Assembly (NCBI RefSeq): GCF_053078305.1
Contig: NZ_CP166879.1
Strand: one strand, 5' to 3'
DNA: 64,000 bases
Shown here: one piece after another, positions 2,767 to 52,757 of the stretch
Layout: each line of letters begins with the position of its first letter
Position numbering within the stretch: the stretch's first letter is position 1
Notes under the pieces: model-generated
What the model saw: only the letters and a program-made list of their open reading frames with translations
The model's database searches: none
What the model was told of the DNA's origin: nothing
Program-made: the position numbers and the translations under genes

Positions 2767-5700
2767 TCACGAAATACTGATACCCGCCGTGGACTTCTTC
2801 ATCACGACAACCAGCAGATCGCTGATACTCGCTGTCGGGTACCATCCATTCACCAGCCAGGCAGACACAGAAAACTCCAGCGTCATATGCCCCCTTCCTG
2901 CAGGCATATCAATCACCCCTGAATACACCTGAGACTCAGCCAGCGCCGTCCTTTCAAAAAGCACCCTGCCGTTACATTTCACCATCAGCCGGCATGATGA
3001 ATAAATATCGTTATGCTCTCTCTCATGTTTAGCGCCGCTGAAAGCCACTGCCGGGATCACAATTTGCCGGTCAAAAGGCTGATCGTCATAAATCCTGACG
3101 GTAATGGTCCCCGATGGCCACCGCTCCGGTGCGCGGGAGTCCCGCGGGAAAGCCTTCCCCACGGTTTTAACAATATCGCCTTCAATCTGGTTGGCAGACA
3201 GTTTTCCAAGTATCCGGCAGTTCTGGTTAATGGTCACATTATTGAGCGTGCCCGAGTTCGCACTGATATGTCCGCTGATGTCCGCATTGCGGGCCGTCAG
3301 CCTGCCCTCCGGCGTCAGGGAGAACGTCGGGGGATTGCCGGACGAGGTGATGCTCACTGCAAACAACCGCTTCAGGAACACATCGTTCATGAACAGCTGA
3401 TTCCCCTGCGCCACAAACAGCGGCGTGGTGTTGCCGTTCTCCGGGTTAATCATCGCGATACGGTCCGCCTGCAGCAGTATATTGCTCAGGGGCTGGCCAT
3501 CAGCATCCTCAATCCCCGCACCAATACCGGCAACATACGGAATGCCGTTTTTCGTTTTCTGCACCTTCAGCATGTACAGCGCAGCCAGGTCGTTATTTGT
3601 GTCTGTCTGCACCCGCTGTATCTGCTGTATGGTGGCACTCTGGTCTTCCAGGGTTTTACTGACCGTCTGCGTGATTTCATTGCGGGTTTCGGTGATGGTG
3701 GTCTTCATCTCCGCCATCTCATCATCAAGCTGGCTGTTATCAATCAGCTCCCACATCCCCTGTGCCAGATGTGTCTTCCCGATTTCTCCTCTGAAAAAGT
3801 CCAGATACCCTTCCGCATCATTGCTGGCCCGGCCACTGGCTTCCACAAACGCAGATTTCCCCACCAGGTTGACGCTGCGCACATAAAACCAGAAATCCTT
3901 CCCCGGCTTAATGTGCGGGCCGGAGACACTCCACTGGCGGCCTGTCCCCAGATAACGGGCAGAGGTTTCCACCTGAGATGTGTCTGCGATTTTTGCCTCC
4001 GAAAACCAGAACTCAAATTGTACCGTCGGGTCATACACCGTAAGATGCGGGACCGCCGTTATCTGATAATACCCCGGCGTCAGCTCAATGCTGTCCGGTG
4101 CTGCCGGGGCGTTAATCCGGAACGTGGTGGTGGCAGGTTCGCCCTGCTGGCCGTAGCTGTTTATCGCCCTGACCGTCAGGGTGTATTCCCCGGGCGGCAG
4201 GCCACTGAAACGGTGCTCCGTATCGGCAGTGATGGCGCTGGTCACCAGGCGGCTGTTTTCACCACTGCCACTGGTCAGGCGCAGACTGAAGCGCACGCCC
4301 TTCACCACCCGCGGCGTGTCCCATTTTGCCAGCGCCATATACTGGCCGTCTGAGGCACTCACCTCCACCGTGAGGTGCTGCACTGCCGGCGGGATGACGC
4401 TGTTCAGTGAACCGGAGAGCGGCTCAAAGCGGGCCCCGTTATCCACGATGGCTTCTTTTTCCGGTACGTGCTGCACTGCCGTGATGGCAAAGGTGCCGTC
4501 CGTGTTTTCCCGGATGGAAACACAGCGGAACAGGCGACGACGCAGTGACGGCAGGGAGAGTCCCCACACACCGTATGTCTCCACGCCATCCGGCAGGGCG
4601 CTGACCTGTATCCGGTCAGGGGCGGGGTGTGCAGTGATGTCCACGCGCACCGGCTTACCGCTGCCGTTAATCAGGTTCACCGTCGATGTACCTGCTTCCG
4701 GCAGTGTCACCTCACGGTCCAGCGTCAGTGTGCGGCTGGCGGCATCGATGGACAGGATGCGTCCACCGGTCAGGGTCCCGGCATAGTCGTTATCACAGAT
4801 TTCAATGATGTCACCGGGCGTGTGCCGCAGCCCCTGTGACCCGAGCATGAAATCCACCGTCTGTGTTTCCAGCAGTTCTGTCTTTATCACCCACAGTCCG
4901 GCACGGTGGGCCTGACCGCGGCTGGTACAGCCGAACGCATCCATCTTCAGCAGATTGCGCCCGTAGCGCAGGATGGCGTCCGGGTCTTCCACCAGTTCCG
5001 TGGAAGTCTGCCAGCCGTTCTGCGGGTCAGTGTAATTCACCTCCACCGCCGTGTGCCGGTCCTTCAGGGCACTGAAGCTGTAGCGGAACCCCACGCCGTT
5101 ATCATCCACCACCACATCGCTGTTGGTGTACGGCCACACCACATCCGACGGACGGTCCTGAACGAACGTCAGCGTCTGGCCGTTCCATACCGGCATACAG
5201 CGCATCGCCGAGCAGAAATCCCCCAGGACATCCCACACCTTACGCTGCTGTGACAGGTACGCATTGAAAGTCATCCGCGGCTCTGTTCCCCCGAAACCAT
5301 CCGGGACCGTCTGGTCACAGTACTGCCCGATGGCATACAGTGCCCACTTGTCCACGTCCGGGGCCCCCAGGCGTTTTCCCATCCCGTAGCGCGGGTGGGT
5401 CAGCATGTCCCACAGGCACCAGGCCGGGTTATTGCTGTATGCCGGTTTCAGACTCCCGTCCCAGATACCGCTGTAGGTGCGTTTTTCCGGGTCATAGTTT
5501 GACGGCACCTGAATGATGCGACCACGGATATGGTAGTTCACCGTCAGCTGCTGGCCACCAAACTGCTCCGCATCCACCTGCAGCCCCACAATGGCCGTGT
5601 TCGGGTAGCACTGTTTCACATCGATGATTTCGGTGTATGACGACCACAGCGTTCTGTTCTGCAGCTGGTCCGTGGTGCTGTCCGCCGTCTCCCTGACCAT

Positions 5701-25989: not shown

Positions 25990-26318
25990 AGATAAGAATA
26001 AGTCTTATTCTAACAATGCCACCCTGTCGGCCATCAATCCTCTGCTTAATGGCAACGACAATTATCCGACTTAAATCACAAATCAGACACATGACATAAC
26101 AGGTCTTGCGAGGTAACACATCGTCCGGTTTCTTCCACCATCGCACCGGACCAGCGACCATGAGGGGACAACGCCGCGCTCCGTTAACGCGGTAAACCCC
26201 GGTGTGTATCGTTTTTGATTATCCCCGCACACTCGCGCAGAGGAGTCTCCCGGTCGGGCTGCGGTCTCTGTTAATGCAGGAATACGGCGACAATACCGCG
26301 CATGAATAATAAGGTCGC

Positions 26319-26543
26319 TCAACACACTGGCTGTAATGCAGCGGATACCATGCGGCATTTAGCGGCATTCATCGTATACTCAACGGTTAGCTCTTCATTC
26401 GTGGCATTCACCTGAAAGGTCCGGGAGTGTAATTGCGTACATTTACCACTGAACGAACCTTCAACAAGAACACGACCACGCTGCAAAATACGGAACGGAA
26501 TTGTTCCCTGAAAAGGCTTTACGGTTACCAATAATTTCTGCAT
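26319..26543 (-). CDS. Hypothetical protein
   Basis: Track ORF; MQKLLVTVKPFQGTIPFRILQRG...; no recognisable family. Confidence 0.3.
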   Translation of the reverse strand: MQKLLVTVKPFQGTIPFRILQRGRVLVEGSFSGKCTQLHSRTFQVNATNEELTVEYTMNAAKCRMVSAALQPVC

Positions 26544-26566
26544 GCATTCTCCGAATAACAAAAATA

Positions 26567-27040
26567 CTAGTTAATACACTGAGTGCGGATATATTCCTGA
26601 AGCATTCTCAATGCTGCCTGGTCGCTGATGATTCCGTCTCTGATACCGAGAACGTTTCGTCCAGCAACCGGAGAGAGTTCGACGGCGGCATCATTGCCCA
26701 CGCCGGAGGTGCCGGTGGCTTCACGCACGGTACCGGGGCAGGTGGCGTTGATCCGCAGGCGCTTACGACCAGCGGCAACATCAGCACGCAGAGTTTCATT
26801 TTCAGCTCTCGCATCGGCTAATTCCCTCGAGTATTTTGCATCGAGCGCAGCAACATCGCGCTGGCGCACCTGCATATCAGTAATGGTTGCGTTTGCCAGC
26901 TCCAGCTCTCTGGCTTTTTTATCACGCTGCGCTTTGTAGGTGATGGCGTTATCGCGGTAATGATTCAGCCCCAGACTAAGCGCACCACAGACCACCAGCA
27001 GAATAACGGTAAACGCGGAAAGCATTCGGTTTATGCTCAC
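26567..27040 (-). CDS. Rz: Rz i-spanin
   Basis: 157 aa; N-terminal TM segment, coiled-coil periplasmic domain; Rz1 embedded in alternative frame. Confidence 0.85.
26608..26802 (-). CDS. Rz1: Rz1 o-spanin lipoprotein (embedded in Rz)
   Basis: [36 protein letters not shown]...; lipobox, Pro-rich. Confidence 0.75.
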
Positions 27041-27168
27041 CCCAGCATCCCCGACGAAGATAACATCATCCAGCCCATGGAAAGAAAAAGAGCAACCAGC
27101 ATTAGTGAAAATGAAATGCCGATGATTACACAGAGGATCTTCGCCAGCATTATGAGTTTGTCTGACAT
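27037..27168 (-). CDS. Small membrane protein (43 aa) between endolysin and Rz
   Basis: [55 protein letters not shown]; stop overlaps Rz start. Confidence 0.45.
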
Positions 27169-27190
27169 GTTTAATCCTCCCTTCACGATT

Positions 27191-27367
27191 TCAACGCAAT
27201 GACCAGTTTTGCCAGCCCATACAGCATCGGAGACACAGCGATATACCGACCGCCACCCACTTAATAGCAAAAGCCAGTGCTCTGCTGATGTCATCAGTTA
27301 CTGGCGCTTTCAGTTCAAGGCCGTTTTTCATAGTCAACCTCAACAGAATTCGTTTATACTTTTCCAT
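27191..27367 (-). CDS. Small protein (58 aa) with C-terminal hydrophobic segment
   Basis: MEKYKRILLRLTMKNGLELKAPVTDDISRALAFAIKWVAVGISLCLRCCMGWQNWSLR; AAGGGAGAA RBS. Confidence 0.4.
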   Translation of the reverse strand: MEKYKRILLRLTMKNGLELKAPVTDDISRALAFAIKWVAVGISLCLRCCMGWQNWSLR

Positions 27368-27523
27368 GTTCTCCCTTGCCTTATCCAAGGTCAGAAACAC
27401 AAAACCCCGCTTGCTGCCAACAAACGGGGTTTTTACTTTTATTCACTTAGGTTTTGCCAGTTCGCAGGATTTCGTGTTATCCGTCCGCGTTGGCCAACGT
27501 CATTTTTCAGCAAAATATTCTGC

Positions 27524-28057
27524 TTATCTGTCGATACCCCAGCACGCCAGCGCGCTCTCCTGGTCACGACGGGATACCTGACCATAACAGTTATTTGAGC
27601 GGATACGGCAGTCTCTGCCACCGTCCTTAATCCACCAGCGAAGCGCCTCACACGCTCCCCTGCGATCTCCTGCATTAATTCGTTTATAAAACGTCGACGT
27701 GAAACACTTACCCGGGCCAATGTTGTAAGGACAGAATGACGCAATACCCGCTTTCTGGGGTTCAGTCAGTGGCACTCTGATGTTTTTCTCCACCCATGCC
27801 AGCGCCTTATCCCGTTCAATGGCGTTAACCTGGTCGCATTTTTCCTTCGACAGCTTCATGCCAGGGACGACAGGCTTACCATCCACCCGGGTGGCACCAC
27901 GGCAGATGGTCCAGATACCCGCACCATCACGGTATGCCGTGGTGTGGTTACCTTCTTTTTCGTCAAGAAACTGGTCGAGGATTTCAGGCGCAGAAGCACC
28001 TGCAGCAATCAGCGCCAGAACGACCGCTGATAAACCATAGCGGAATTTCCTGCTCAT
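27524..28057 (-). CDS. R: SAR endolysin (phage lysozyme, R21-like)
   Basis: 177 aa; N-terminal SAR/signal-anchor helix, lysozyme catalytic region. Confidence 0.9.
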   Translation of the reverse strand: MSRKFRYGLSAVVLALIAAGASAPEILDQFLDEKEGNHTTAYRDGAGIWTICRGATRVDGKPVVPGMKLSKEKCDQVNAIERDKALAWVEKNIRVPLTEPQKAGIASFCPYNIGPGKCFTSTFYKRINAGDRRGACEALRWWIKDGGRDCRIRSNNCYGQVSRRDQESALACWGIDR

Positions 28058-28061
28058 CAGC

Positions 28062-28277
28062 TTACTCTCCCCGCGCCGCCTTACGCCGGTCCTCTCTGAT
28101 TTTGAAATACAGGTTCGTCAGATATGTCAGCAGCCCAAACAGCAGACTCCCCAGCACGCCTATTGCCGCCCACTGAGACGGGGAAACCCTGTCCAGCAAC
28201 TGCAGGAACCAGTAGCCCGTTCCCACCGCTGACGTGGTGTATGACACACCTGTTGTGATTTTTTCCATCTGGTACAT
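28062..28277 (-). CDS. S: Pinholin (S21-like), dual-start
   Basis: [71 protein letters not shown]. Confidence 0.9.
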
Positions 28278-28353
28278 ACCCCGTCTCCCGCAAGCCGGAA
28301 GCTCACAACAATATAAAGACCACCGGCACACACCGATGGTCCCTTGCGCATGC

Positions 28354-28599
28354 TTACATCATCATGTCGCTGTCAGGTGTGGGGTCACCGCCATCTGAAG
28401 CACTCCCCTCACCCGCGATACCTTCCGGCTCCGGAACTGCCGGTGCGCCCAGCAGTTCATCCAGAATGGCATCCACTTCTGCATCAAGACGCGCCTCAAG
28501 GTTCTGGCGGAGTTTCTGTTTCAGTGCGCTCAGGACTTCTTCAGAGCGCAGGACTTCCTTCACTGCCTCTGCAGTGACCAGGGATGTAATTTCTGACAT
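28354..28599 (-). CDS. Hypothetical acidic protein upstream of holin
   Basis: Internal start [28 protein letters not shown]... of track ORF 28354..28773. Confidence 0.35.
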
Positions 28600-28639
28600 G
28601 GGATTTTCTCGTCGAAAGGTGTGATTAAGAAAGTTGCAG

Positions 28640-28819
28640 CTAAATGAGCGGCTCTTCGGGTTTGCTTCCGGCTGACTGACTGGCGCTGATTTTCTCTGCG
28701 GCCCTTTTATCAATCTGCCTGCGCCAGAAATCGCGCACTGCCCTGTACCCACCCGAAAGAAGATACAGCACACAGACCGCCGTACAGAAGTACAGCATTA
28801 ACTGGTTCAGAAATGTCAT
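28640..28819 (-). CDS. Small membrane protein (59 aa)
   Basis: Read by eye: MTFLNQLMLYFCTAVCVLYLLSGGYRAVRDFWRRQIDKRAAEKISASQSAGSKPEEPLI. Confidence 0.3.
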   Translation of the reverse strand: MTFLNQLMLYFCTAVCVLYLLSGGYRAVRDFWRRQIDKRAAEKISASQSAGSKPEEPLI

Positions 28820-28969
28820 GGTTTCTCACCGTGATAGTTGACATGATTTACTTATTTTTGTAGAAAAACACCGCAGACTTCGGTGTCATCATGGTCGTTT
28901 TACCAGCCGCCAGCATTCATGTAGTGGACACAGTTCATCCCTTTCCTTCATTGCTGGCGGCCTTTTTTA

Positions 28970-30937
28970 TCATGCCGCGGCGTCCGCGTTGTTCACTTCC
29001 ACCTTCACACTGTCAATCAGCAGCGTATATGTCGCCGCCTTTGATATGCCTGTCAGTTGCAGTTTGTCCGCCGCCCCTGATGCCGGAGATTTCACCAGTG
29101 TGAACGGTGTACCCCGTTTCTCATCCAGTACCGGCGTCACCTGAATGCTGTTGTTTCCGGCAAACTCAAAAGCCAGTGTGTGCCATCCGTTATCAAAGAC
29201 CCCGAACGTATCCAGCTTCGCATTCTGCTTCTTGTGGTACATCGCGTTCAGGTTCGTCGCATCCGTCTGCAGGAAGAAGGACATCAGCATGTCGTTGCCT
29301 TCCTCTGCCAGCGTCACTCCCTCCGGCAGGGACGACAACTGCCAGTAAATACCCAGGGCAAACTGATTCGGCACCAGTGCGCCCGGCACCTTAAACCGCA
29401 CGCTCACACGTCCGCCTTTCTTCAGCAACTCTGCCCCCTTCCCGGCGGCATCATGCTCCAGAAACCAGATGTGGCTTTCCGGTTTGTTCAGTTGCAGGGC
29501 CTTACCACCGGTGGCACCCTCATCACTGACCACGGCCTCAGCGATGTTTTTATCAACACTGTCTCCGCTCGCCGGTTTGTGATAATAGCGCCAGCCCTGT
29601 GATGCCAGGTCTTCACCGGACGCCAGCAGACTCATCAGGGTTCGGTTACTGACCGGGGCTTCCGGCTCTCTCTCCGGGCCTTCACCGGAAGGTCCGGTGG
29701 GCTTCACCGTATCAGGCTGTTTTCCGGTAATGAATTCAGCGGTTCTCCCGGCATGCACCAGAATCGCCGTTGCCAGACGGTCGGAAATAATCCCACGGCG
29801 AGCCCATGAACTGAAATGGCTGGCCCTGTCCACAGATGTCCAGGTCTTCTGGTCATTACGCCACTTTGAACCGTAATAACCGACGGCTTCCAGGTCCGGG
29901 TCTTCTGCCGGGTCATTGGTCTGCACATTCGCACCATTCTCATCCGTCATTAACGGTACAAAGAAAATGTTCTGCGACTCCTTACCCTTATACCCTCCGT
30001 ATACTGATGCATACCCTTCCGCATGACGCTGCTTCCAGAAATACGTTGTGTCCCCGCAAATCCACGGTACCGCTGATGCGCTGCCTCCTGTGCTCTGTGA
30101 TGCCTGACCGGCAAGCTCCGTTCTGAACTGATTCACCATCGCACTAAACAGCCCCGGATGCTGCGCATGCGTCCCCACTGCCGCATCACCTTCTCCCTGC
30201 ATCCACACCACCGCAAGCAGACGGTTTTTCGGGTTCTTCGCCAGTGCGGCTTTAGTCCGGCTCACCAAATCCTGATACAGCGGCTTACCCACACCCCAGC
30301 GCAGTGAATTTTCCGATGCACCGGCTGATTCGTTGTATGTGCCGTCTGCACCCGTTGTGAATGCCGAAGCACCACGGCAGCACGGAACCAGCAGAATGCC
30401 CGCATTCGCCGGTATAAACGGCAGCAGTTTTTTGGCGATATGCAGCCCCTGCCCCACGGTTCCGTACTGCCCCTTTGACAGGTCCGCTTTCGGATGGTTA
30501 AGACGGCTCATGTCCTGCACATCATGCAGACAATGGTCCGCCGGAATAATGTCGTTATACTTACAGGCGGCACCGCCCGGTGTCACCGTACTGCGACGCG
30601 CCAGCTGCTTAATACGCGGGTCCGGACGGTCATATGTCTCCGGCAGCGGAAGGCCTTCACCATACGACATGCCGTTTGACTGCCCTGCCAGAACCACAAC
30701 AAAGTAATACTCCGGGTCGCTGGTGGCGCTGATTACTGTGCCTTCTCCATCCGACGGCTTCACCACCACAGGTGTGGTGACATCACCTTCCGCCGCAATG
30801 GCCTGCATCAGGGTATAAGGCGTGATGGCCACCGGGCTGCCAAATGGCTGCCACCCCTCCTTCAGTTTTTGAGTCAGTCGCTCCGCAAGGTCTGACGGCG
30901 ACGCCGCCCTGACCACGTCATAGTGTTTAAATGCCAT
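28970..30937 (-). CDS. NanS-p-type sialate O-acetylesterase (SGNH/DUF303 with C-terminal lectin-like domain)
   Basis: 655 aa; VVLAGQSNGMSYG motif; position between the toxin slot and the holin as in Stx prophages. Confidence 0.8.
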   Translation of the reverse strand: MAFKHYDVVRAASPSDLAERLTQKLKEGWQPFGSPVAITPYTLMQAIAAEGDVTTPVVVKPSDGEGTVISATSDPEYYFVVVLAGQSNGMSYGEGLPLPETYDRPDPRIKQLARRSTVTPGGAACKYNDIIPADHCLHDVQDMSRLNHPKADLSKGQYGTVGQGLHIAKKLLPFIPANAGILLVPCCRGASAFTTGADGTYNESAGASENSLRWGVGKPLYQDLVSRTKAALAKNPKNRLLAVVWMQGEGDAAVGTHAQHPGLFSAMVNQFRTELAGQASQSTGGSASAVPWICGDTTYFWKQRHAEGYASVYGGYKGKESQNIFFVPLMTDENGANVQTNDPAEDPDLEAVGYYGSKWRNDQKTWTSVDRASHFSSWARRGIISDRLATAILVHAGRTAEFITGKQPDTVKPTGPSGEGPEREPEAPVSNRTLMSLLASGEDLASQGWRYYHKPASGDSVDKNIAEAVVSDEGATGGKALQLNKPESHIWFLEHDAAGKGAELLKKGGRVSVRFKVPGALVPNQFALGIYWQLSSLPEGVTLAEEGNDMLMSFFLQTDATNLNAMYHKKQNAKLDTFGVFDNGWHTLAFEFAGNNSIQVTPVLDEKRGTPFTLVKSPASGAADKLQLTGISKAATYTLLIDSVKVEVNNADAAA

Positions 30938-31149
30938 GAATCCTCCCGGTCGGGATAATGTTGTGAGTCAGATAAGGGGCGGGCTGAAGTCCGGAAGTTA
31001 CAGGACAATGACAGAAGGAAGACTACAGCCCGCAATACGAAAAAGGCCGCGCAGTTGCGCAGAGTGATTACTGTCGGGTATTATTCGCCAGCTGAAAAAT
31101 TGATTACTTCACGTTTTGTTGTTTATTCCTTGCTGCCCGCATCTCACCA

Positions 31150-31960
31150 TGCGGGCTTTTTTTATCCATAAGAAAGCCCCTCCGGAGAGGGGCTGGAGTA
31201 GCGCTATGTACCGTTCATTGCATGATGCCGGGTGCCTCCCGGTGAGTTCAGCCCGGTGCCACCGAACCCGCGTCATTCTCGCTAACGATCATCAGAGACC
31301 ATACCGTACACCAGCCGCCCCTCCGCACAGGGGGATTCATCATGCAGAAATTTTTTAACAAATTCTCAGTCGGGAAGACAACCTTCAACTGACTGAATTG
31401 TGAGCAACATAGCATTTAACGGGGAACCTGTTTTCTGCAGTAAAAAGGCCCACCGGAGCGGACGGGCCTGGAAGGATAGCGGTCATGTGATGCCGGTTTC
31501 CCGGTAACTCAGCACCGGTATCTGAGTCAACGTTTTCTCTACTGGGTCATTTCCGATACGCCCTGCCTGCTGACAGGCTTTCATCACATCTGAAAATATA
31601 GCACCCTGACTGATACTGTAGTACCCAAGGTTCCAGAAACTGTGATGTATCCGGCACAGAAAAGCCCCTCCGGAGAGGGGCTGACGCTGCGTATCTGTAT
31701 CATCATGCGCATGGTGCCGGGTGCCTCCCGGTGAGTTCAGTATCAGCACCTGAACCCGCACAGAAAGGATAAGGGATGTAACCAAACACCTGTCGCTGAT
31801 ATGCCCCTCCGCTCAGGGGGATTCACCATGCCAGTTTCTTTTAACAAACTCCCCGCAAATCAGACAACTGTCAACCGTCTGAATTGTGAGACATTTAAAA
31901 TTTTCGGGGCAACAGGAAGACAATCATCACGACACCGGCAACCAGCGACCGGCACCAGAT
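31150..31960. repeat. Two diverged copies (~490-bp spacing) of a structured non-coding element
   Basis: Shared segments AAGCCCCTCCGGAGAGGGGCT, TGCCGGGTGCCTCCCGGTGAGTTCAG, CCCCTCCGCxCAGGGGGATTCA, CTGAATTGTGAG at ~31174/31664, 31223/31713, 31317/31804, 31394/31879. Confidence 0.6.
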
Positions 31961-32956
31961 TTAACGTATGTGCACACAACCTGAACCGGCATCAAAAAAC
32001 AAACCGTGCACTGACAGAAAACGGGAAACCTCCGTCCGCTGATCATCACTCATTAAGGACCACACAAAGGCGTTATGCTCATCTTCAAGTTTCCGTCTTC
32101 TTGTTTGCCTTACAAGCAACTCAGCCGTCACCTGTACAATGTCAATGACCTCCTTCTCTTCAGCAATGTACGGCCTGTTCCAGTTGTCTGTGTTAATCTT
32201 CTCCGTCACCGGCGCTGACTTTTTGCAAGTTTCCCCATTAAACCCGACGCCATAAACAACAACATCATCGCTTTGCTTTTCGTTATCAATAATGACGAAT
32301 AATACAGAAACCGATGTATCAGCGAACCCGCCTGAAATCTGAACCAACTCAACAACGCGGTTGCCAAAATACTGACGCATTGCCAGCTCACCACGCCTGT
32401 AACCAACCCCGGGAAAGCACAAAAAAAATGAAAATCTTGCCTTCATGCTCGCCAGAACATAAAACGCGTCATCCAGAACACCGGAGGTCTTTTTATAAGG
32501 CATCATCGCTGAAATCTTCTCCCTGATATCCGCGCTCTGTGCTTTGTACTGTAGCGAAAAAGGCGGATTCATGATGACACAATCGAACGTGTCCGTGTCA
32601 CTGACATCATCGATGGCGTTGAAGAAATTTTCATTGACCGTCTTCACTGTGGCATCCGGGAAATTATCCGGGATATGCACCAACGGAGAGGCCTGTATAT
32701 CCACAGCATACAGACTTCCCACCGTGAGAAACTGCTCCAGTTGCCCGGAGCCACACGCACCATCAAAAATACTCAGGGGCAGATCACCACAATATTCCCG
32801 CACTTTTTCAGCGACAAACCGACGCAAAGGAACGGACGTGATGTACTCTGCGTATTTTCTGGCGACATCGCGATTATTGGACTCCTGAAAAACCATTTGT
32901 GAAAGGCTCTGTGGTTGATATGCGCCGGGCGTGGCGCGGAGGCAAAAAAGGCCCAC
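31961..32956 (-). CDS. DNA N6-adenine methyltransferase, gamma-like motif order (orphan)
   Basis: FDGACGSGQL (motif I) followed by VIMNPPF (motif IV); start may be internal at ~32896. Confidence 0.7.
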   Translation of the reverse strand: MGLFCLRATPGAYQPQSLSQMVFQESNNRDVARKYAEYITSVPLRRFVAEKVREYCGDLPLSIFDGACGSGQLEQFLTVGSLYAVDIQASPLVHIPDNFPDATVKTVNENFFNAIDDVSDTDTFDCVIMNPPFSLQYKAQSADIREKISAMMPYKKTSGVLDDAFYVLASMKARFSFFLCFPGVGYRRGELAMRQYFGNRVVELVQISGGFADTSVSVLFVIIDNEKQSDDVVVYGVGFNGETCKKSAPVTEKINTDNWNRPYIAEEKEVIDIVQVTAELLVRQTRRRKLEDEHNAFVWSLMSDDQRTEVSRFLSVHGLFFDAGSGCVHIR

Positions 32957-32981
32957 AAAAGCGAGCCAGGAAAAATAAGTG

Positions 32982-33058
32982 TGGTGCGTTGTACTGGATT
33001 CGAACCAGTGACCGATTGCTTAGAAGGCAATTGCTCTGTCCGGCTGAGCTAACAACGC
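32982..33058 (-). tRNA. argO: tRNA-Arg (anticodon TCT), argO-like
   Basis: Cloverleaf read by eye; anticodon loop CTTCTAA; GGTTCGAATCC T-arm; CCA end. Confidence 0.8.
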
Positions 33059-33071
33059 AGTGTACAGATAA

Positions 33072-33148
33072 TGGACCGCCATCGAGGACTCGAACCCCGC
33101 GCAACCAGCTTCGAAGGCTGGCGCTCTATCCCGATGAGCTAATGGCGG
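33072..33148 (-). tRNA. argN: tRNA-Arg (anticodon TCG), argN-like
   Basis: Anticodon loop CTTCGAA; GGTTCGAGTCC T-arm. Confidence 0.75.
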
Positions 33149-33155
33149 TATGTGA

Positions 33156-33231
33156 TGGTGGCCCTTGCTGGATTTGAACCAGCGACCTGGCGATTATGAG
33201 TCGCTCGCTCTCACCACTGAGCTAAAGGGCC
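33156..33231 (-). tRNA. ileZ: tRNA with CAT anticodon, ileX-like (tRNA-Ile2), ileZ-like
   Basis: GGCCCTTTAGCTCAGTGG...GACTCATAATCGC...GGTTCAAATCC...CCA; close to E. coli ileX. Confidence 0.75.
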
Positions 33232-33271
33232 GGGCGCAGGATAATAACGGTACGTAACTAATCCTGCAATA

Positions 33272-34330
33272 TCATCCGTTCTGACTGGCTAAATCCTGAA
33301 CTTCCCTGACCGTCTGCTCAAAACGTTCAGTCTCCAGCTCAACGCCAGTTGCACGACGCCCCAGCGCCATCGCTGCTTTGACTGTCGAACCCGACCCCAT
33401 GAAAAAATCTGCAACCAGGTCACCCGGACGACTGCTCGCGCTGATTATCTGCTGCAGCATTTCTGCCGGTTTTTCGCACGGATGTTTCCCGGGATAGTAC
33501 TGCACCGGTTTATGCGTCCACACATCGGTGTACGGCACCTGCGCCGTCACGCCAAAATACCGCCGCAGATGCTTATATTCACTCTGCAGTTCCGTATAGT
33601 GTCGGTTCAGTTCACTGTATGTGCTGACCAGTTGGTGATGTGGCTTTTCCAGTTCTCCGCGCTGATGCTTCTCTTCTGCCACCCGGGCAAACAGCGCCTG
33701 TAATTTCAGATAATCGCTTTCGTCCGGTAGCTGCCACTGACTGGCACTGAACCAGTGCGACACCATGTTTTTCTTTCCTGTGGCATCAGCAATCTGTTTT
33801 GCCGTTATCCCCAGGGCAGCACGTGCATCACGAAAGTAAGCAATCAGCGGGGCCATCACATGCTGTTTCAGTGCCCTGCCCTTCGCCTCATACCCGGCAT
33901 CTTTCGGACGATACGGCCCCTGATAATGTTCCGCGAACAGAATGCGCTCTGTGGCGGGGAAATACGCCCTCAGGCTTTCCTTGTTGCACCCGTTCCAGCG
34001 TCCGGACGGCTTCGCCCAGATAATATGGTTCAGCACACTGAAGCGTTCACGCATCATGATTTCAATGTCAGATGCCAGGCGATGGCCACAGAACAGGTAA
34101 AGACTTCCGGCAGGTTTCAGCACCCGCCAGAACTGCGCCAGACACTGGTCCAGCCACTTCAGGTAATCATCGTCGCCCTTCCACTGGTTATCCCAGCCCT
34201 CAGGCTTCACTTTAAAGTACGGCGGGTCCGTGACTATCAGGTCAACAGAATTTTCGGGTAACGACCGGATAAATTCCAGGCAGTCGGCGTTGATTAACTC
34301 ACAACTGGATATTTTTACAGTATTAAGCAT
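33272..34330 (-). CDS. DNA methyltransferase, beta-class (N6-adenine or N4-cytosine), orphan
   Basis: 352 aa; DPPY (motif IV) near N-terminus, FFMGSGST (motif I) near C-terminus. Confidence 0.85.
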   Translation of the reverse strand: MLNTVKISSCELINADCLEFIRSLPENSVDLIVTDPPYFKVKPEGWDNQWKGDDDYLKWLDQCLAQFWRVLKPAGSLYLFCGHRLASDIEIMMRERFSVLNHIIWAKPSGRWNGCNKESLRAYFPATERILFAEHYQGPYRPKDAGYEAKGRALKQHVMAPLIAYFRDARAALGITAKQIADATGKKNMVSHWFSASQWQLPDESDYLKLQALFARVAEEKHQRGELEKPHHQLVSTYSELNRHYTELQSEYKHLRRYFGVTAQVPYTDVWTHKPVQYYPGKHPCEKPAEMLQQIISASSRPGDLVADFFMGSGSTVKAAMALGRRATGVELETERFEQTVREVQDLASQNG

Positions 34331-34480
34331 GGATCATTAAGCCTGTCTCTGATAGGCTCATTCTGCTTTTGCGCAAAGCAGTGGGCCTGAGGTTTGCTTG
34401 TGATCCGGACGCATGAGCAGATGGCTGGTGAGTGCCCCTAACACCCACCAGCCGCCCATTTACCACAAATAAAAAAGCCT

Positions 34481-34678
34481 TCAGGACTGAAGGCGTCTGT
34501 AACAACCGAACTGATAGTCTGCCAGACCCGCCATAACAAGCTGGGTCAGTATTAACTGGCAGCGTTCACGTGAAAGATAAGTATTCTGCGCAATCTCCCC
34601 GACTGTCGCCGGTTCGGTGGCACTTAATTCATTAAACACCACTCTGGCGGTTTCTGTCATATCCTGCTGTTTCAGCAT
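34481..34678 (-). CDS. Small hypothetical protein (possible DNA-binding)
   Basis: Internal start MLKQQDMTETARVVFNELSATEPATVGEIAQNTYLSRERCQLILTQL... Confidence 0.3.
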   Translation of the reverse strand: MLKQQDMTETARVVFNELSATEPATVGEIAQNTYLSRERCQLILTQLVMAGLADYQFGCYRRLQS

Positions 34679-34801
34679 GTCTTTTTCCCTTTTCCGGTTA
34701 ACGTGACACACCAATAACTCTTGTCAAAAAAGCCAGCAAGCTGAAAGACCGGTATTCACCACCACCAGCGCGTTTACTGTACTGACGAGATTTTCGGACA
34801 T

Positions 34802-34826
34802 AAAAAAAACCACCTGGCGGTGGTTT
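34802..34826 (-). terminator. tR-prime-like intrinsic terminator downstream of Q
   Basis: Minus strand CCACC-GCCA-GGTGG followed by T8. Confidence 0.6.
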
Positions 34827-34837
34827 TTTCTTACTTT

Positions 34838-34885
34838 GCCATCGCGTACAAAATCGGCAAAATATCAGATTTATACGAAACATAC
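34838..34885 (-). promoter_or_regulatory. Candidate late promoter pR-prime
   Basis: Minus strand TTGCAA, 17 nt spacer, TATGTT between Q stop and the terminator. Confidence 0.35.
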
Positions 34886-34890
34886 GCGAT

Positions 34891-35580
34891 TTAATTGACT
34901 TTTGCAATATCTCGTCGTGAAAAGGTCGCTTTTTGTTGCGCTCTTATTTTCACGGAGCAAATCAAGGATTCTCTATCGAGGCGCTTAAAAATATCGCACA
35001 TCTCACGCCAGTAGTTCGCATAATTATGGCTCCAGTTATCAGGCTTAACTCCACACAGTCTGGCAAGCTCCTGTCTCTGGTAGACCTCACACCCGGTAAC
35101 CCATCCTCTGACATCCTGTGCCGCCAGCCAGATCAACTTCTTCACACGCTCCAGCGTTTTCACTGCAATTTTTCTGGAGCCGGACTGAGTTTTAAATTCA
35201 CTCCACACCCACTGTGTTATGGTGACCTGATCTTCCCAGCAAACATTTCCACTGTAGCACCACAGTAACCACGCCTTCTGATGTTCTTCCAGTTCCAGAA
35301 CGGCACGCCGCCACGATGATGTTGCAAACTCAACCGGACTGACCAGAGCAATTGACGTCCCTTTCGCCAGTGATTGTTTGCCCGGGATCGGTGGATTATC
35401 CCGCGTGATCATTTTTCCGGTTACCTCATCGCGGTAACGAATTTTTTTACGTCTGTAACGCCCTGTATCGAACAGGGCATTTTCCTGCCAGGCTTCCAGC
35501 TGGCCTTTTGTCGACCCACTGAGATCCGCAGTGGCAATCATGAGTTGCTCACGAACAAACTGTAAATACTGGCTATTCAT
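34891..35580 (-). CDS. Late-gene antiterminator Q-like protein
   Basis: 229 aa at the Q position (downstream of rusA, upstream of promoter/terminator pair); Cys-containing; family not verified. Confidence 0.5.
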   Translation of the reverse strand: MNSQYLQFVREQLMIATADLSGSTKGQLEAWQENALFDTGRYRRKKIRYRDEVTGKMITRDNPPIPGKQSLAKGTSIALVSPVEFATSSWRRAVLELEEHQKAWLLWCYSGNVCWEDQVTITQWVWSEFKTQSGSRKIAVKTLERVKKLIWLAAQDVRGWVTGCEVYQRQELARLCGVKPDNWSHNYANYWREMCDIFKRLDRESLICSVKIRAQQKATFSRRDIAKVN

Positions 35581-35935
35581 GCACACCCACCTCTGTAATT
35601 CTTATCTCCAGCCGTCCACCAGATACTGGCTGGCCACGTACAATATTGATTTCATCAAACTGCTCATCGTCCATTAACAACCCCGCGTGCGTCAGCGCAT
35701 CCAGCGGTGCTTTCAGAATATTGTCCAGGTCACGGCGGCGCTTATCCGGTGGCTCTGCAATAATTTTTATTGCCAGCCGTCCGGACAGGCTTAATTTCAG
35801 TCGCTGCTGGCGAACAATAAGCGCCACTGCCCGGCGATAACGCTCCCCGGCTTTTGATACAAAATATGTGCTGCCACGGCGTCGCCAGTAAGTGTTCACC
35901 GTCGGCGGGTAAGGTAAAACCAAATCTATGAGCAT
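35573..35935 (-). CDS. rusA: Holliday junction resolvase RusA
   Basis: 120 aa; ...DKRRRDLDNILKAPLDALTHAGLLMDDEQ...GGRLEIRITE. Confidence 0.9.
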   Translation of the reverse strand: MLIDLVLPYPPTVNTYWRRRGSTYFVSKAGERYRRAVALIVRQQRLKLSLSGRLAIKIIAEPPDKRRRDLDNILKAPLDALTHAGLLMDDEQFDEINIVRGQPVSGGRLEIRITEVGVHE

Positions 35936-35947
35936 CAGTCACCTCTT

Positions 35948-36997
35948 TTACCCGAGCACGCCAGTCGCAAAGGCGTGATCAAGAAAACGAAAAATTAACT
36001 CAATCTGAGAGCCGTACTTTTTCTCAAACTCCAGCGGGTCTGCATGAAGTTCGTTGTGGTGCTCCCGGCACAACGGTAGCGTGAAAATATCGTGGGCCTT
36101 TGTCCCCATTCCCCCCTGACCATGACCAATCAGGTGATGCGGATCGTCAGCAGGCTTACCACAACACGCACACGGCTGTGTCTTTACCCAGCGCGTGTAT
36201 TTCTCATTAACCCAACGGCGACGTTTAGGCCGCCTCATGAACGATTCAGGAGACTCCGGATCAACGGCGATACTGACAACCGTTTTTTTCTGTGGTGGAT
36301 TTTGTTGCTGGTGGACGTGAAGTGGCAGCGCAATATTTTTTGTGCGCTGCTTCAGTATGCTGATGGCTGTCTGTTCTCCCGGTACGATGTCACTCTCACG
36401 GTATACGGAGCGGATTTTTTCCGCTGGTAATCCCAGCGAACGACGCGCTACTGCCTCAGGTAGTGCATCCACCACCTGATTGCAGGCCGCCCACCAGGAT
36501 AATTCGGCCAGCGATAACTCCCTCTCCTGCGTGCCGCTTATTGCGTGACGGATGACGTCAATCATCCAGGCAACCAGATTCTGCTGAGCAAGTTGATCGA
36601 GTGATTCTGATGTCTGGTCGCGCAGCTGGTTGTCACAGTGCCAGCACAACACCATCGCGCCGGTACCGTAACGGTGAATGACGGTTTCGCTGTGATGATA
36701 ATCGCCGTGTGGCCACTGGCAGGATTTCACGTGACGTAATAACCAGTCAGACAGTGCACCTGCACCACCCGCAGCACGAATCACCCGTTCGTTGCTGAAA
36801 AATGGCAGTAATGTTTTATCCTCTGCCAGCGGCTGTCGAACGGCGGGAACGACTCCGGACGGCAGACCGCGCATGTTTTTCGGTTCCGGCTCCACCAATA
36901 TTCTGCCGTTATGGAATGCTGACATTGATTCACGGCCCGGCTTAAGGAGCACCATCCCGAGTTCCGGTACCAGAACAGGTCGAAGTAATACCCGCAC
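35948..36997 (-). CDS. DUF968-like phage protein with C-terminal HNH-like Cys/His motif
   Basis: 349 aa; ...CACCGKPADDPHHLIGHGQGGMGTKAHD...CREHHNELH. Confidence 0.55.
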   Translation of the reverse strand: MRVLLRPVLVPELGMVLLKPGRESMSAFHNGRILVEPEPKNMRGLPSGVVPAVRQPLAEDKTLLPFFSNERVIRAAGGAGALSDWLLRHVKSCQWPHGDYHHSETVIHRYGTGAMVLCWHCDNQLRDQTSESLDQLAQQNLVAWMIDVIRHAISGTQERELSLAELSWWAACNQVVDALPEAVARRSLGLPAEKIRSVYRESDIVPGEQTAISILKQRTKNIALPLHVHQQQNPPQKKTVVSIAVDPESPESFMRRPKRRRWVNEKYTRWVKTQPCACCGKPADDPHHLIGHGQGGMGTKAHDIFTLPLCREHHNELHADPLEFEKKYGSQIELIFRFLDHAFATGVLG

Positions 36998-36998
36998 G

Positions 36999-37268
36999 TT
37001 ACCTCCAGATGCGCTGCTGGAATGTGCGGGACGGACGCGGTGGGCGTTCGGAATAAGGGAGCCTGACGGAGATTATCCAGTGACGACGATCGAAGCTGAG
37101 ATCTTTCTGAAACTCGTAACCACGTCTGCGGTAGCACTGGATCAGCCATTCGGCCTGTTCTTCAGTGCATGGGGGATGCTGGTACCAGTCGGTTTTAAAT
37201 ACGTGCGAACGCCGCCCTTGCCTACTGGCAAGGGCGGCAGAATTGTGCAATCTGGTATCGTGCGCCAT
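36999..37268 (-). CDS. Hypothetical nin-region protein
   Basis: Track ORF; no family recognised. Confidence 0.3.
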   Translation of the reverse strand: MAHDTRLHNSAALASRQGRRSHVFKTDWYQHPPCTEEQAEWLIQCYRRRGYEFQKDLSFDRRHWIISVRLPYSERPPRPSRTFQQRIWR

Positions 37269-37321
37269 CGGGATCTCCGGTGGCACGGTGTTTCTCAGCG
37301 ACGGTTCAAGTCAGCCTGATT

Positions 37322-37594
37322 TTATAGCTGCTTCTGAATATCATCAACAGGTAATCCTGCCAACTCTCTTACCTCAGAAAGAAGAGAAAGGCTTACAACA
37401 ACCTCATTACTTCGCATAACAAAACCACATTGAAAAGAACCATCACTGTTTCTGTAAACAACAACCGGGCGCGTGCTCTCATAAAACCCCGGGATCAAAC
37501 TGGCTGGGATTTTCACAACACCTCCTGACGTAAAGGAAATGAAATGCATTATCGCTTCTCTCGGACTATAACCATGAAAAGAGACGCATTTCAC
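37322..37594 (-). CDS. Hypothetical nin-region protein
   Basis: Track ORF; no family recognised. Confidence 0.3.
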   Translation of the reverse strand: MKCVSFHGYSPREAIMHFISFTSGGVVKIPASLIPGFYESTRPVVVYRNSDGSFQCGFVMRSNEVVVSLSLLSEVRELAGLPVDDIQKQL

Positions 37595-37772
37595 TCAGTA
37601 AATCTGAGGATTTTATGCGCAAAAACAATGACTTTTTCTGTCTGCCGTTTATACAATCTGAATTACGTCTGTTTTTTGAACAACGATAAATCAGCAAACA
37701 TTCTCAAATAAAGATTGCCTCCATAGTCCACATGGTGTAACACTATGTGTTATATAAAATGCAGAGGCAGGT

Positions 37773-38144
37773 ATGCGAATTTTCAAAAACGCCTGGTTTG
37801 AACGTTTCGCCCGAAAACATCGGATTTCCGATAAATCGCTGCGCGAAATCGTGGAGCAGGCCGATAAGGGGATCATATCCGCAAATTTGGGTAGTGGTGT
37901 CATTAAACAAAGATTAGCCCGAAGTGGTGGCGGAAAATCAGGCGGTTACCGGACAATAATTTTTTACCGCGTTGCAGAAAAAGCCTTTTTCATCTACGCA
38001 TACGCAAAGAATGAACGAGAGAATATCACCGCTATAGAGGAAAATGCTTTTCGAAAAGCCGCTCCCCATGTCCTCAATCTTACTGATGAACAGCTGGCAC
38101 AATTGATTCTACAAGGCCAGTTCACGGAGGTACCCAATGAGTAA
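37773..38144 (+). CDS. Type II toxin, Gp49/RelE-like (DUF891-like)
   Basis: 123 aa; ...GGYRTIIFYRVAEKAFFIYAYAKNERENITAIEE...; 8-nt overlap with downstream HTH gene. Confidence 0.6.
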   Translation: MRIFKNAWFERFARKHRISDKSLREIVEQADKGIISANLGSGVIKQRLARSGGGKSGGYRTIIFYRVAEKAFFIYAYAKNERENITAIEENAFRKAAPHVLNLTDEQLAQLILQGQFTEVPNE

Positions 38145-38556: not shown

Positions 38557-38712
38557 TTACTCCTCAGGTTCGTAAGCTGTGAAGACAGCGACCTCCGTCT
38601 GGCCGGTTCGGATTCGTACCTCGCAGAGGTCTTTCCTCGTTACCAGTGCCGTCACTATGACGGTTAAACAGATGACGATCAGGGCGATTAACATCGCCTT
38701 TTGCTGCTTCAT
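38557..38712 (-). CDS. hokD: Hok-family type I toxin (HokD/RelF-like)
   Basis: MKQQKAMLIALIVICLTVIVTALVTRKDLCEVRIRTGQTEVAVFTAYEPEE, internal start of track ORF (a mok-like upstream extension). Confidence 0.9.
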   Translation of the reverse strand: MKQQKAMLIALIVICLTVIVTALVTRKDLCEVRIRTGQTEVAVFTAYEPEE

Positions 38713-38983
38713 AGCCTGCTTCTCCTTGCCTTTCGGCACGTAAGAGGCTAACCTACATTTGTGAGACATAGATTGGGCCTCAGATTAATGTTAAGCGTCT
38801 TGCAGGACGCGAAATGTTAACTGGGGCTTTTCTCTATCTGCCTTTTGGTGTTCATGCCTGAGACAGATAGCCTCAAGCACCCGCAGCGATTTTACAGAAA
38901 TAAGTTATTATTTTCTATCTCACCCTTCACTTATCTCATTCCTAGCTATACTCATCGTTCACACAACATTAAAGGGCATAAAA

Positions 38984-45991: not shown

Positions 45992-46249
45992 TTAGCACCA
46001 GTAAAAACAGGTTGCCACTGGTTAATTTACCCTGAAAAGTCAGGGCATAACACGAAAGCGCACGGAGAAGCTCGTCTCTCTGTACTTTGTCGCTAAATTT
46101 AATTCGACCGTGCGCTTCCGGTTGTGGCAATCCGCGAAATGGCGCGGCGGTAAGTATGGCTGGGGTTTCCTCCATTGCTCCAGAAAATGCACCGGGTTGT
46201 CAGGTTGACCATACGCTTAAGTGACAGCCCCGCCACAATACCCATGTGT

Positions 46250-46300
46250 AGTCTTTGGTGGCATCAGTTCTACTCCGTGACTGCTCTGCCACCCTTTTTA
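46250..46300 (+). ncRNA. dicF: DicF-like small RNA
   Basis: ...TGGTGGCATCAGTTCTACTCCGTGACTGCTCTGCCACCC followed by TTTTT; similar to my recollection of E. coli DicF with terminal hairpin. Confidence 0.55.
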
Positions 46301-46788
46301 AAGTGAATTTTGTGATGCGGTGAATGCGGCTAAGCGCACGCGGAACAGTTAAAACCGTAAAGTGGTCTTTTACGGGGCGTAACGGGCATACTTCTGTATT
46401 CCGGCGTTAATTGTTAACTGGTTAACGTCACCTGGAGGCACCAGGCACTGCATCAACAAAGTTCACTTCGGTGATGAAGGGTAAGAGAAAATGTTGAATG
46501 TAGCTATTGAAAACCAGAACGGGTGGAATTATAGTGCACCTGCACCTCATAAAACGGGTGCCGGGCGTGGAAACCCGATGATGATCAACGCGCATAACCG
46601 CGCTCAGGCGGTTTTTTTTATGCGTCAAGCACAGCCACATTCAAATTATGGTGGGGCGTGCAGGGCAGCTGCAAGGCTGGCCGGCTCCGTTGGTCACCGG
46701 TATTTCCACCCCTGTACGTCTCACCACCTTTATGGTCGTGGAAAACCTCGGTGGTGAGTTATTTAAACTGATCAACGAGGCTGCCATC

Positions 46789-51600: not shown

Positions 51601-51690
51601 TGGTGGAGAGAGGGGGATTTGAACCCCCGGTGGAGTTGCCCCCACTCCGGTTTTCGAGACCGGTCCGTTCAGCCGCTCCGGCATCTCTCC
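51601..51690 (-). tRNA. serU: tRNA-Ser (anticodon CGA), serU-like; prophage attachment site
   Basis: GGAGAGATGCCGGAGCGGCTGAACGGACCGGTCTCGAAAACCGG...GGTTCAAATCCCCC...CCA read from minus strand. Confidence 0.85.
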
Positions 51691-52681: not shown

Positions 52682-52757
52682 TCCTCTGTAGTTCAGTCGG
52701 TAGAACGGCGGACTGTTAATCCGTATGTCACTGGTTCGAGTCCAGTCAGAGGAGCCA
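52682..52757 (+). tRNA. asnT: tRNA-Asn (anticodon GTT)
   Basis: TCCTCTGTAGTTCAGTCGGTAGAACGGCGGACTGTTAATCCG...GGTTCGAGTCC...CCA. Confidence 0.9.

Follow-up and report, generated by a model that had tools for sequence, protein, structure and literature searches.

Morons inserted downstream of PR′ have been described together with convergent Hfq-bound small RNAs (sRNAs), which lie between the moron and a conserved open reading frame (ORF) (Tree et al. 2014, PMC4104026), and eight prophages of Sakai (Sp3, Sp4, Sp5, Sp9, Sp10, Sp11, Sp15 and Sp17) combine such a slot with convergent sRNAs (PMC4104026). The sRNA EcOnc27, known as sRNA103 in EDL933, overlaps the STnc100 annotation and has its gene a short distance downstream of stx2B (PMC12711010, PMC7873438). 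STnc100 itself occurs in 11 copies in EDL933, where it is transcribed and one copy has been verified by Northern blot (PMC5331693), and in other Escherichia coli strains producing Shiga toxin (STEC) it lies 75 nt downstream of stx2 (PMC12370729); a preprint (10.64898/2026.05.13.724894) relates it to PasD, both being found beside esterase genes in Stx-type prophages. The subject of the present analysis is a locus of this kind, positions 30,938 to 33,271 of a 64,000-nucleotide stretch of contig NZ_CP166879.1 (NCBI RefSeq assembly GCF_053078305.1), the whole of that stretch being referred to below as the window. It is very probably the late-region moron slot of a lambdoid prophage of the Stx-phage type that lacks stx: a stand-alone methyltransferase is the cargo, and three sRNA genes of the STnc100/PasD family follow it, together with an RNA that converges on them. 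As such it is an ordinary variant of the described layout: the slot and the sRNA genes beside it are known, and the cargo is rare.

The slot and its boundaries

In the Stx2a phage LC645409 the tRNAs are followed by stxA (319 amino acids, aa), stxB (89 aa), a gap of 75 nt, STnc100, a further ~221 nt and nanS-p. Sakai Sp5 has the same order, with AsxR converging on STnc100. The window is co-linear with both, running Q, tRNA-Ile2/Arg/Arg, slot, STnc100, nanS-p, holin and endolysin, and its tRNA cluster (32982..33231) corresponds to ileZ-argN-argO of Stx phages, annotated in Sp5 as ileZ2/argN2/argO2. A tblastn search with Stx2A and Stx2B gave nothing significant across the 64-kb window. An earlier note on this DNA had described an Stx-phage-like late layout without stx, and the co-linearity and the empty search bear that description out. 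On the strand it was wrong, sequence and ORF reading over 29000-35500 placing the whole late region of the prophage, RNAs included, on the minus strand. Read along that strand, the order is Q, a tR′-like terminator, a 65-aa ORF, methyltransferase 1, three tRNAs, a terminator and methyltransferase 2, followed by about 1 kb without a credible ORF, the NanS-p esterase, two small ORFs, holin and endolysin (Table 1), so the order of genes given in that note was correct.

Homology with related prophages ends and resumes sharply on either side of methyltransferase 2. BLAST against ABU 83972 gives homology over 33400-32901 and then over 31905-30800 (87% over 1111 nt); against Stx2a phages and the Sakai loci it covers 33382-32933 and resumes from ~31893 downward. 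These breaks bracket the cargo alone, and the cassette is therefore delimited to the 995 bp given in Table 1, with methyltransferase 2 as its sole gene. In ABU 83972 the slot holds TerB and DUF3927 as cargo, and in Stx2 phages stx2AB. The insert is thus a moron in the usual sense: it has sharp boundaries, and phages homologous to this one in their other parts have unrelated genes at its position. The block in common with Stx2a phages reaches 32933 and so includes the terminator after the tRNAs. The 24 kb around the locus were found at 100% identity in no complete genome searched, the best match reaching 97.7% over 89%; the window is therefore a mosaic absent from that genome collection. All occurrence counts given below refer to a set of 5426 complete E. 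coli genomes.

The STnc100 array

The stretch of about 1 kb between methyltransferase 2 and nanS-p is where the earlier note had found a structured element in two copies, which it took for a possible new RNA regulatory element or a scar of cargo exchange. In an Rfam scan covering 26000-38000, both copies are matched over the full length of the STnc100 model (RF02076, model positions 1-206) on the minus strand, far beyond chance and well above the gathering threshold of 47 bits; they are termed units A and B. The repeat accordingly belongs to an existing Rfam family, with EcOnc27/sRNA103 and PasD as published Hfq-bound relatives, and is not novel. The count of two copies also had to be revised, since between A and B lies a middle unit, M, that is diverged in sequence, has the same architecture and ends in its own terminator. 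Unit M is preceded by an extended -10-like TGcTATATT and has the closing helix AUGUGAUG/CAUCACAU; it is unannotated, and at a level of at least 90% identity it occurs in 672 of the 5426 genomes (12%). Each of the three units has one minus-strand intrinsic terminator, and the terminator scan of the region returned 9 terminator-like sites where 3.1 were expected.

Twelve units were aligned, comprising A, B and M of the window, three from PhiR5_2, three from ABU 83972, and those of the Stx2a phage, Sakai Sp5 and PasD2. In the fold predicted by RNAalifold each unit consists of a long closing helix around internal hairpins, then a variable single-stranded linker and then the intrinsic terminator. 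On this structure 95.2% of cells are paired, both sides have changed in 11 of the 26 pairs, and the covariation score was reached by none of 500 shuffles, figures to be read with the caveat that the 12 sequences are related and that the structure was derived from the same alignment. Sliding the partners by 1-3 columns as a control lowers pairing to 41-51%, and the independent Rfam model supports the same helices. Between units A and B the closing helix carries a compensatory change from G-C to A-U (GCAUGAUG...CAUCAUGC versus GCAUGGUG...CACCAUGC), and unit M has the same helix with three further compensatory pairs. The hairpins picked out in the earlier note find their places in this fold: AGCCCCTCTCCGGAGGGGCT is the terminator, CCGGGAGGCACCCGG an internal hairpin and CCCCCUGNGCGGAGGGG the first hairpin. 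Its statement that a hairpin differs between the copies only in the loop is right for CCCCTCCGCxCAGGGGG, with A or T in the loop, and does not extend to CCGGGTGCCTCCCGG, which is identical in both; the suggestion of selection on structure that it drew from this is upheld by the compensatory pairs, the pairing fraction and the shuffles.

The same note had seen a GGGGGA sequence resembling a Shine-Dalgarno site, followed by ATG. The sequence is real and lies on the strand opposite to the RNA, where it is the complement of the 5′ closing helix GCAUGRUGAAUCCCCC. That the units are small mRNAs or dual-function RNAs, encoding either the plus-strand product or a near-leaderless micro-ORF on the minus strand (MVNPP...), is highly improbable. 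Several EDL933 copies of STnc100 have ribosome-coverage values above 1 (PMC5331693), and the first 5-8 codons of the minus-strand frame (M-V/M-N-P-P-x-R/W-R/G) recur in A- and B-type units; the conserved hairpin, however, explains that recurrence. Beyond 8-11 codons the micro-ORF diverges in length and sequence, ranging from 1 to 41 aa from the conserved AUG across the 12 units, and it is absent from M-type units and from unit B of PhiR5_2. The plus-strand ORF varies as well: it has 16 aa in copy A and 10 aa in Sakai, and in copy B it belongs to a 115-aa ORF and exceeds 100 aa. Judged from the aligned units, neither ORF is a conserved coding frame.

Among described RNAs the closest is EcOnc27/sRNA103, which belongs to the same RF02076 family, is likewise sense to the late operon between cargo and nanS-p, and shares with the window units the closing helix, the CCGGGAGGCACCCGG hairpin and the GC-rich terminator. 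The differences are that the window has three tandem units against one, that the gene upstream is a methyltransferase instead of stx2B, and that the window linkers differ from the Sakai linker targeted by the EcOnc27 probe; between the published Northern probe and that Sakai linker the match is exact. With the stx2-linked copy of the Stx2a phage, unit A shares 85.6% identity. PasD1 and PasD2 of enteropathogenic E. coli (EPEC) E2348/69, homologues of EcOnc13, share with the window units the 5′ sequence GCAUGGUGAAUCC, the closing-helix architecture, a location upstream of a sialate esterase gene, and a single-stranded linker followed by a terminator. The BLAST similarity of PasD2 is limited to ~25-26 nt at the 5′ end of units A and B, and a motif search of the minus strand over 30938-31960 did not find the PasD seed CCUUGUGAG. 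A PasD-type identity was therefore rejected in favour of the STnc100 type.

The array in the order B-M-A is also present in phage PhiR5_2 and in ABU 83972, which on this comparison makes it part of the phage backbone, retained whatever the cargo. It is not uniform within that backbone: unit A of PhiR5_2 combines the body of window unit B with the linker of window unit A, and unit A of ABU 83972 combines the body of window A with the linker of window B. These exchanges suggest recombination within the conserved segment CCGGGAGGCACCCGGCACCAUGC. It has also to be asked whether the repeats could be functionless, either as decayed coding sequence or as a scar from recombination during cargo exchange. 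In some annotations homologous stretches carry 'hypothetical protein' or pseudogene calls, and the repeated module has its upstream end at the cargo junction. Against this stand the strong covariance-model scores, the compensatory pairs and a terminator in each unit, the 87% conservation of the array over 1.1 kb in a lineage with different cargo, the prevalence of unit M noted above, and sense ORFs that vary in length as described. On this evidence both the scar suggested in the earlier note and the degraded-coding reading are hardly credible and already largely refuted.

The Hfq cross-linking and analysis of cDNA (CRAC) data on EcOnc27 in Sakai and the RNA-seq and Northern data from EDL933 concern homologues of the window units. 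The three units would, if they behave alike, be expressed in the lysogen as Hfq-dependent RNAs acting in trans by base pairing. The PasD seed has been located in the single-stranded linker before the terminator (PMC8550237 supplement), and no part of the alignment varies more than this linker; for this reason we infer that the variable linker would serve as the seed and that the three units may have three target specificities. One alternative is that the array acts mainly in cis, as a series of terminators that shields nanS-p and the lysis genes in the lysogen from transcription not modified by Q, arising for example at a cargo promoter or the tRNAs, the RNAs being by-products. Three co-oriented terminators, with one more after the tRNAs, the retention of the block with any cargo and a location that has nanS-p and the lysis cassette directly downstream all fit such insulation. 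One terminator would suffice for it, however, and the ~150 nt of conserved structure with compensatory changes upstream of each terminator would be superfluous; homologues are, moreover, abundant Hfq-bound RNAs with many partners found by sequencing of ligated, interacting RNAs (RIL-seq). We regard this alternative as unlikely as the main role, while noting that terminator and sRNA functions are mutually compatible.

No description of unit M or of the reassortment of body and linker modules was found in the literature. It is a tentative possibility that unit M represents a true third class within the STnc100/PasD superfamily, one not yet catalogued, in an array evolving by body/linker swaps and, separately, that methyltransferase 2 reshapes the STEC host's methylome in lysogens.

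The convergent RNA

On the plus strand, a terminator (31135-31156) followed by seven T directly adjoins unit A, whose 3′ end is at 31164, so that an RNA ending there lies tail-to-tail with an STnc100 unit between cargo and esterase ORF, as in the convergent pairs of Tree et al. 2014. The stretch CACGUUUUGUUGUUUAUUCCUUGCUGCCCGCAUCUCACCAUGCGGGCUUUUUUU is homologous to the EPEC sRNA E2348C_1409.E2348C_1408.IGR, detected by RIL-seq, whose gene (NC_011601 1444797-1444978, minus strand) occupies the equivalent place in prophage PP6 (PMC8550237). Window positions 31051-31163 (+) align with 19912-19797 (-) of the E2348/69 PP6 locus, including the published probe target and CACGUUUUGUUGUUUAUUCCUUGC; the sequence of this sRNA in the RIL-seq supplement differs by a few bases from the E2348/69 sequence. 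Its RIL-seq partners include cfa, dppA and tir, with a shared target motif GGCAAGG, and the same study equates it with EcOnc08/21/42 of Sakai Sp4 (PMC8550237). EcOnc08/21/42 has a Northern size of ~271 nt, and its published probe matches window 31051-31085 at 31 of 35 positions. The window RNA is thus of the EcOnc08/21/42 and E2348C_1409-1408 IGR type (~180-270 nt reported), unlike AsxR and AgvB, and differs from the EPEC sRNA in the seed, which reads CCUUGCU in place of CCUUGCC. This variant occurs in 1075 of the 5426 genomes, mostly at 80-90% identity.

Identity with AsxR or AgvB (RF02703 / RF02702), taken as a covariance-model match to their conserved ~42-nt 3′ region, was rejected, there being no Rfam match at E values up to 10 in the 263 nt of 30938-31200; as a positive control the AsxR model scores 88 bits on Sakai Sp5. 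The 5′ end of the convergent RNA is uncertain. Transcription may start from a promoter-like site at 30931-30959, which would yield an RNA of ~200 nt antisense to the nanS-p leader, or there may be a ~60-nt form starting near 31103. The promoter-like ATGCCA-17-GATAAT (30931-30966, +) overlaps the start of nanS-p at 30937 and points away from that gene. If the RNA has the ~271 nt reported for its homologue, it would lie antisense to both the start codon of nanS-p and its ribosome-binding site.

In ABU 83972 (locus 2700-2749) an AsxR/AgvB-type terminator, GCCCGAACCCACUCGGGC, lies on the opposite strand beside the same B-M-A array, and the convergent partner has therefore been exchanged independently of the array. 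In prophage PP6 of E2348/69 (locus positions 18078 and 19660-19800) the STnc100 copy is split by ISEc13 in its first hairpin, with the neighbouring, RIL-seq-detected convergent sRNA intact.

The cargo methyltransferase

The sole gene of the cassette encodes a predicted stand-alone HsdM-like (gamma-type) N6-adenine DNA methyltransferase. The Prokaryotic Genome Annotation Pipeline (PGAP) and the ORF list extend it to a GTG at 32956 (331 aa, ORF 31961-32956), the length given in the earlier note; that ORF exists, and the protein is most likely the 311-aa product starting at ATG 32896. The GTG lies within the terminator hairpin (32967-32950) after the last tRNA-Arg, in backbone common to phages without the gene, and phage homologues align only from residue 20-23. 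A relative of 79% identity is also 311 aa long, and the backbone homology with ABU 83972 reaches 32901; all of these argue for the ATG as the start. In the 311-aa form motif I (FDGACGSGQ, residues 44-52) precedes motif IV (NPPF, residues 110-113), and in a family alignment FDGAxGSGQ and NPPF are invariant or nearly so across 13 homologues. Among proteins of solved structure the closest relative is the EcoR124 M subunit, through its catalytic domain; the N-terminal part of HsdM is missing and only the catalytic core matches.

The gene is rare. It occurs in 11 of the 5426 genomes, always as a single intact copy of at least 99% identity, and all 11 carriers (ten human isolates and one from food) also hold the surrounding 2.4-kb stretch. 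Among 50,697 phage records searched with tblastn, homologues turned up in no phage of E. coli, the best matches being Streptococcus, Fusobacterium and Mannheimia phages at ~39-43% identity. A large protein search returned 596 relatives, mostly of 275-330 aa with PF02384, and two further variants of 79% (311 aa) and 61% identity, one of the two named E. coli in its source. The 79% variant comes from a metagenome contig of another phage lineage, where it follows a Q-like gene and tRNAs, with 81% nucleotide identity across tRNAs and methyltransferase, and other genes and a nanS-p-like start come directly after it. In Providencia a homologue belongs to the nin region of a prophage of lambdoid type. 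In having motif I before NPPF, a length within the ~280-330 aa of the group, a temperate phage or prophage as carrier and no nuclease partner, methyltransferase 2 resembles the phage-borne orphan N6-adenine methyltransferases of PHROG 6380 with a PF02384-type core. It differs from them in being only ~40-52% identical to its relatives outside E. coli and in occupying the stx slot, in contrast to the early or nin region of other orphans of this type.

No endonuclease or specificity gene adjoins methyltransferase 2 in the window, and no nuclease lies beside the homologue loci examined. Its neighbours are tRNAs and sRNA genes, where a restriction-modification system would have a cognate endonuclease alongside, so that the orphan methyltransferase proposed in the earlier note, with motif I before NPPF and no adjacent nuclease, stands. 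That the enzyme is instead inactive, or supplies the modification activity for a restriction-modification or other defence system with its nuclease elsewhere, is very unlikely. One PGAP annotation does read 'type I restriction-modification system subunit M', and PADLOC returns matches to mad2 and MTase_I; the PADLOC matches, like those of NCBIfam and Pfam, are weak and therefore establish no link to a defence system. The missing N-terminal part of HsdM, the absence of a nuclease or specificity gene in either setting, the intact catalytic motifs and the single-gene make-up of the cassette all speak against this reading. From its position and from general knowledge of phage orphan methyltransferases, methyltransferase 2 would be transcribed within the Q-antiterminated late transcript and would methylate phage and host DNA during lytic growth, which may protect progeny DNA from restriction in the next host.

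Evidence against the proposed reading

Several observations weigh against the proposed reading of the slot, its RNAs and its cargo. The Rfam match of unit M (31440-31613, E 0.005) is below threshold. The 5′ ends of the units are uncertain because three indications disagree: the mapped 5′ end of PasD2 (NC_011601 741157; PMC8550237 Table S6) corresponds to GCAUGG in the window units and would give RNAs of ~175 nt, the Rfam model begins 28 nt further upstream, and the EcOnc27 Northern size of ~235/247 nt points to a 5′ end close to the CTCACAATTCAG box, a longer size that could mean processing from a longer transcript. A consensus scan found no sigma-70 promoter on the minus strand; candidates seen by eye, TGtTAAAAA or TTGACA-17-GAnTTT for A and B and TGcTATATT for M, are not established. 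Methyltransferase 2 gave no promoter of its own in the consensus scan, with no sigma-70-like site upstream of ATG 32896 and 4 nt of cassette preceding that codon. Its Pfam and NCBIfam matches (MTS, N6_Mtase, Eco57I, hsdM) are weak, at E 0.0029 for Pfam N6_Mtase, most homologues of 40-50% identity having a precomputed PF02384 match. Finally, the literature leaves the functions of STnc100-type RNAs largely undefined.

Flanking genes and other elements of the prophage

The coordinates of all features are collected in Table 1. A gene identical to the window Q in NZ_CP045712 carries the PGAP name 'bacteriophage antitermination protein Q', and the terminator that follows Q may play the role of tR′, as it stands at the pR′/tR′ short-transcript position of lambdoid phages. 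Methyltransferase 1 belongs to the common backbone, since ABU 83972 has the same gene at the same place. Methyltransferases 1 and 2, which are of different classes, flank the tRNA cluster on opposite sides, and in NZ_CP045712, the closest complete genome, a further methyltransferase lies within the lysis cassette (locus positions 2925-3860); the late region is therefore unusually rich in methyltransferases. Between nanS-p and holin (28300-29000) there are two small ORFs, matching PHROG 494 and PHROG 311/8301, and a search of that interval for PasA and PasC gave no Rfam and no BLAST match.

Table 1. Features of the late region and of the wider prophage in the window
Feature	Position	Strand	Evidence or remark
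Antiterminator Q-like gene	34891..35586	-	PHROG 304 'anti-termination protein Q-like', E 2e-103
tR′-like intrinsic terminator, ~70 nt 3′ of Q	34809..34821	-	Terminator scan
Methyltransferase 1, 352 aa, beta-class N4/N6 type DNA methyltransferase	33272..34330	-	PADLOC MTase_II E 1e-163; PHROG DNA methyltransferase families
tRNA, anticodon cat (tRNA-Ile per PGAP)	33156-33231	-	ARAGORN, Rfam tRNA
tRNA-Arg, anticodon tcg	33072-33148	-	ARAGORN, Rfam tRNA
tRNA-Arg, anticodon tct	32982-33058	-	ARAGORN, Rfam tRNA
Intrinsic terminator directly after the tRNAs	32950..32967	-	Terminator scan
Cargo (moron) cassette in the stx slot, 995 bp, 47.8% G+C, methyltransferase 2 only	31906..32900	-	Homology breakpoints
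Methyltransferase 2, stand-alone HsdM-like (gamma-type) N6-adenine DNA methyltransferase (predicted), 311 aa	31961..32896	-	PHROG 6380 E 2e-79
STnc100-family sRNA gene, unit B	31654..31860	-	Rfam RF02076 134.9 bits; PasD-type 5′ end would be 31831; terminator 31682-31663
Unit M, diverged third unit	31439..31590	-	Same architecture; terminator 31469-31446; Rfam STnc100 28.5 bits
STnc100-family sRNA gene, unit A	31164..31374	-	Rfam RF02076 168 bits; PasD-type 5′ end would be 31345; terminator 31194-31175
Convergent RNA, EcOnc08/21/42 homologue	30966..31163	+	Terminator 31135-31156 + seven T; sequence match to E2348/69 PP6
NanS-p-type SASA carbohydrate esterase, 655 aa, closing the slot	28970..30937	-	PHROG 143, 1085 bits; PGAP 'SASA family carbohydrate esterase'
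Holin	28062-28277	-	PHROG families 9876 and 20
Endolysin	27524-28057	-	PHROG family 7
sok antitoxin RNA	38707-38882	-	121 bits
DicF, isrK and C4 antisense RNA cluster	46243-46731	+	61, 66 and 73.5 bits; far prophage end
tRNA-Ser	51601-51690		Beyond the DicF/isrK/C4 cluster
tRNA-Asn	52682-52757		Beyond the DicF/isrK/C4 cluster

Outside the late region, the sok match implies that the early region of the prophage contains a putative type I toxin-antitoxin locus of the hok/sok kind. The tRNA-Ser and tRNA-Asn genes may mark the integration site.

Conclusions

The locus mostly leaves existing knowledge unchanged, adding one more moron slot in which the cargo has been exchanged and the flanking sRNA genes have been retained. 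Of modest value are three points: that a rare orphan methyltransferase can take the place of the toxin in this slot, that the block of sRNA genes between the cargo and nanS-p is left blank by standard genome annotation, and that the middle unit of the array, widespread as it is, escapes the Rfam threshold.

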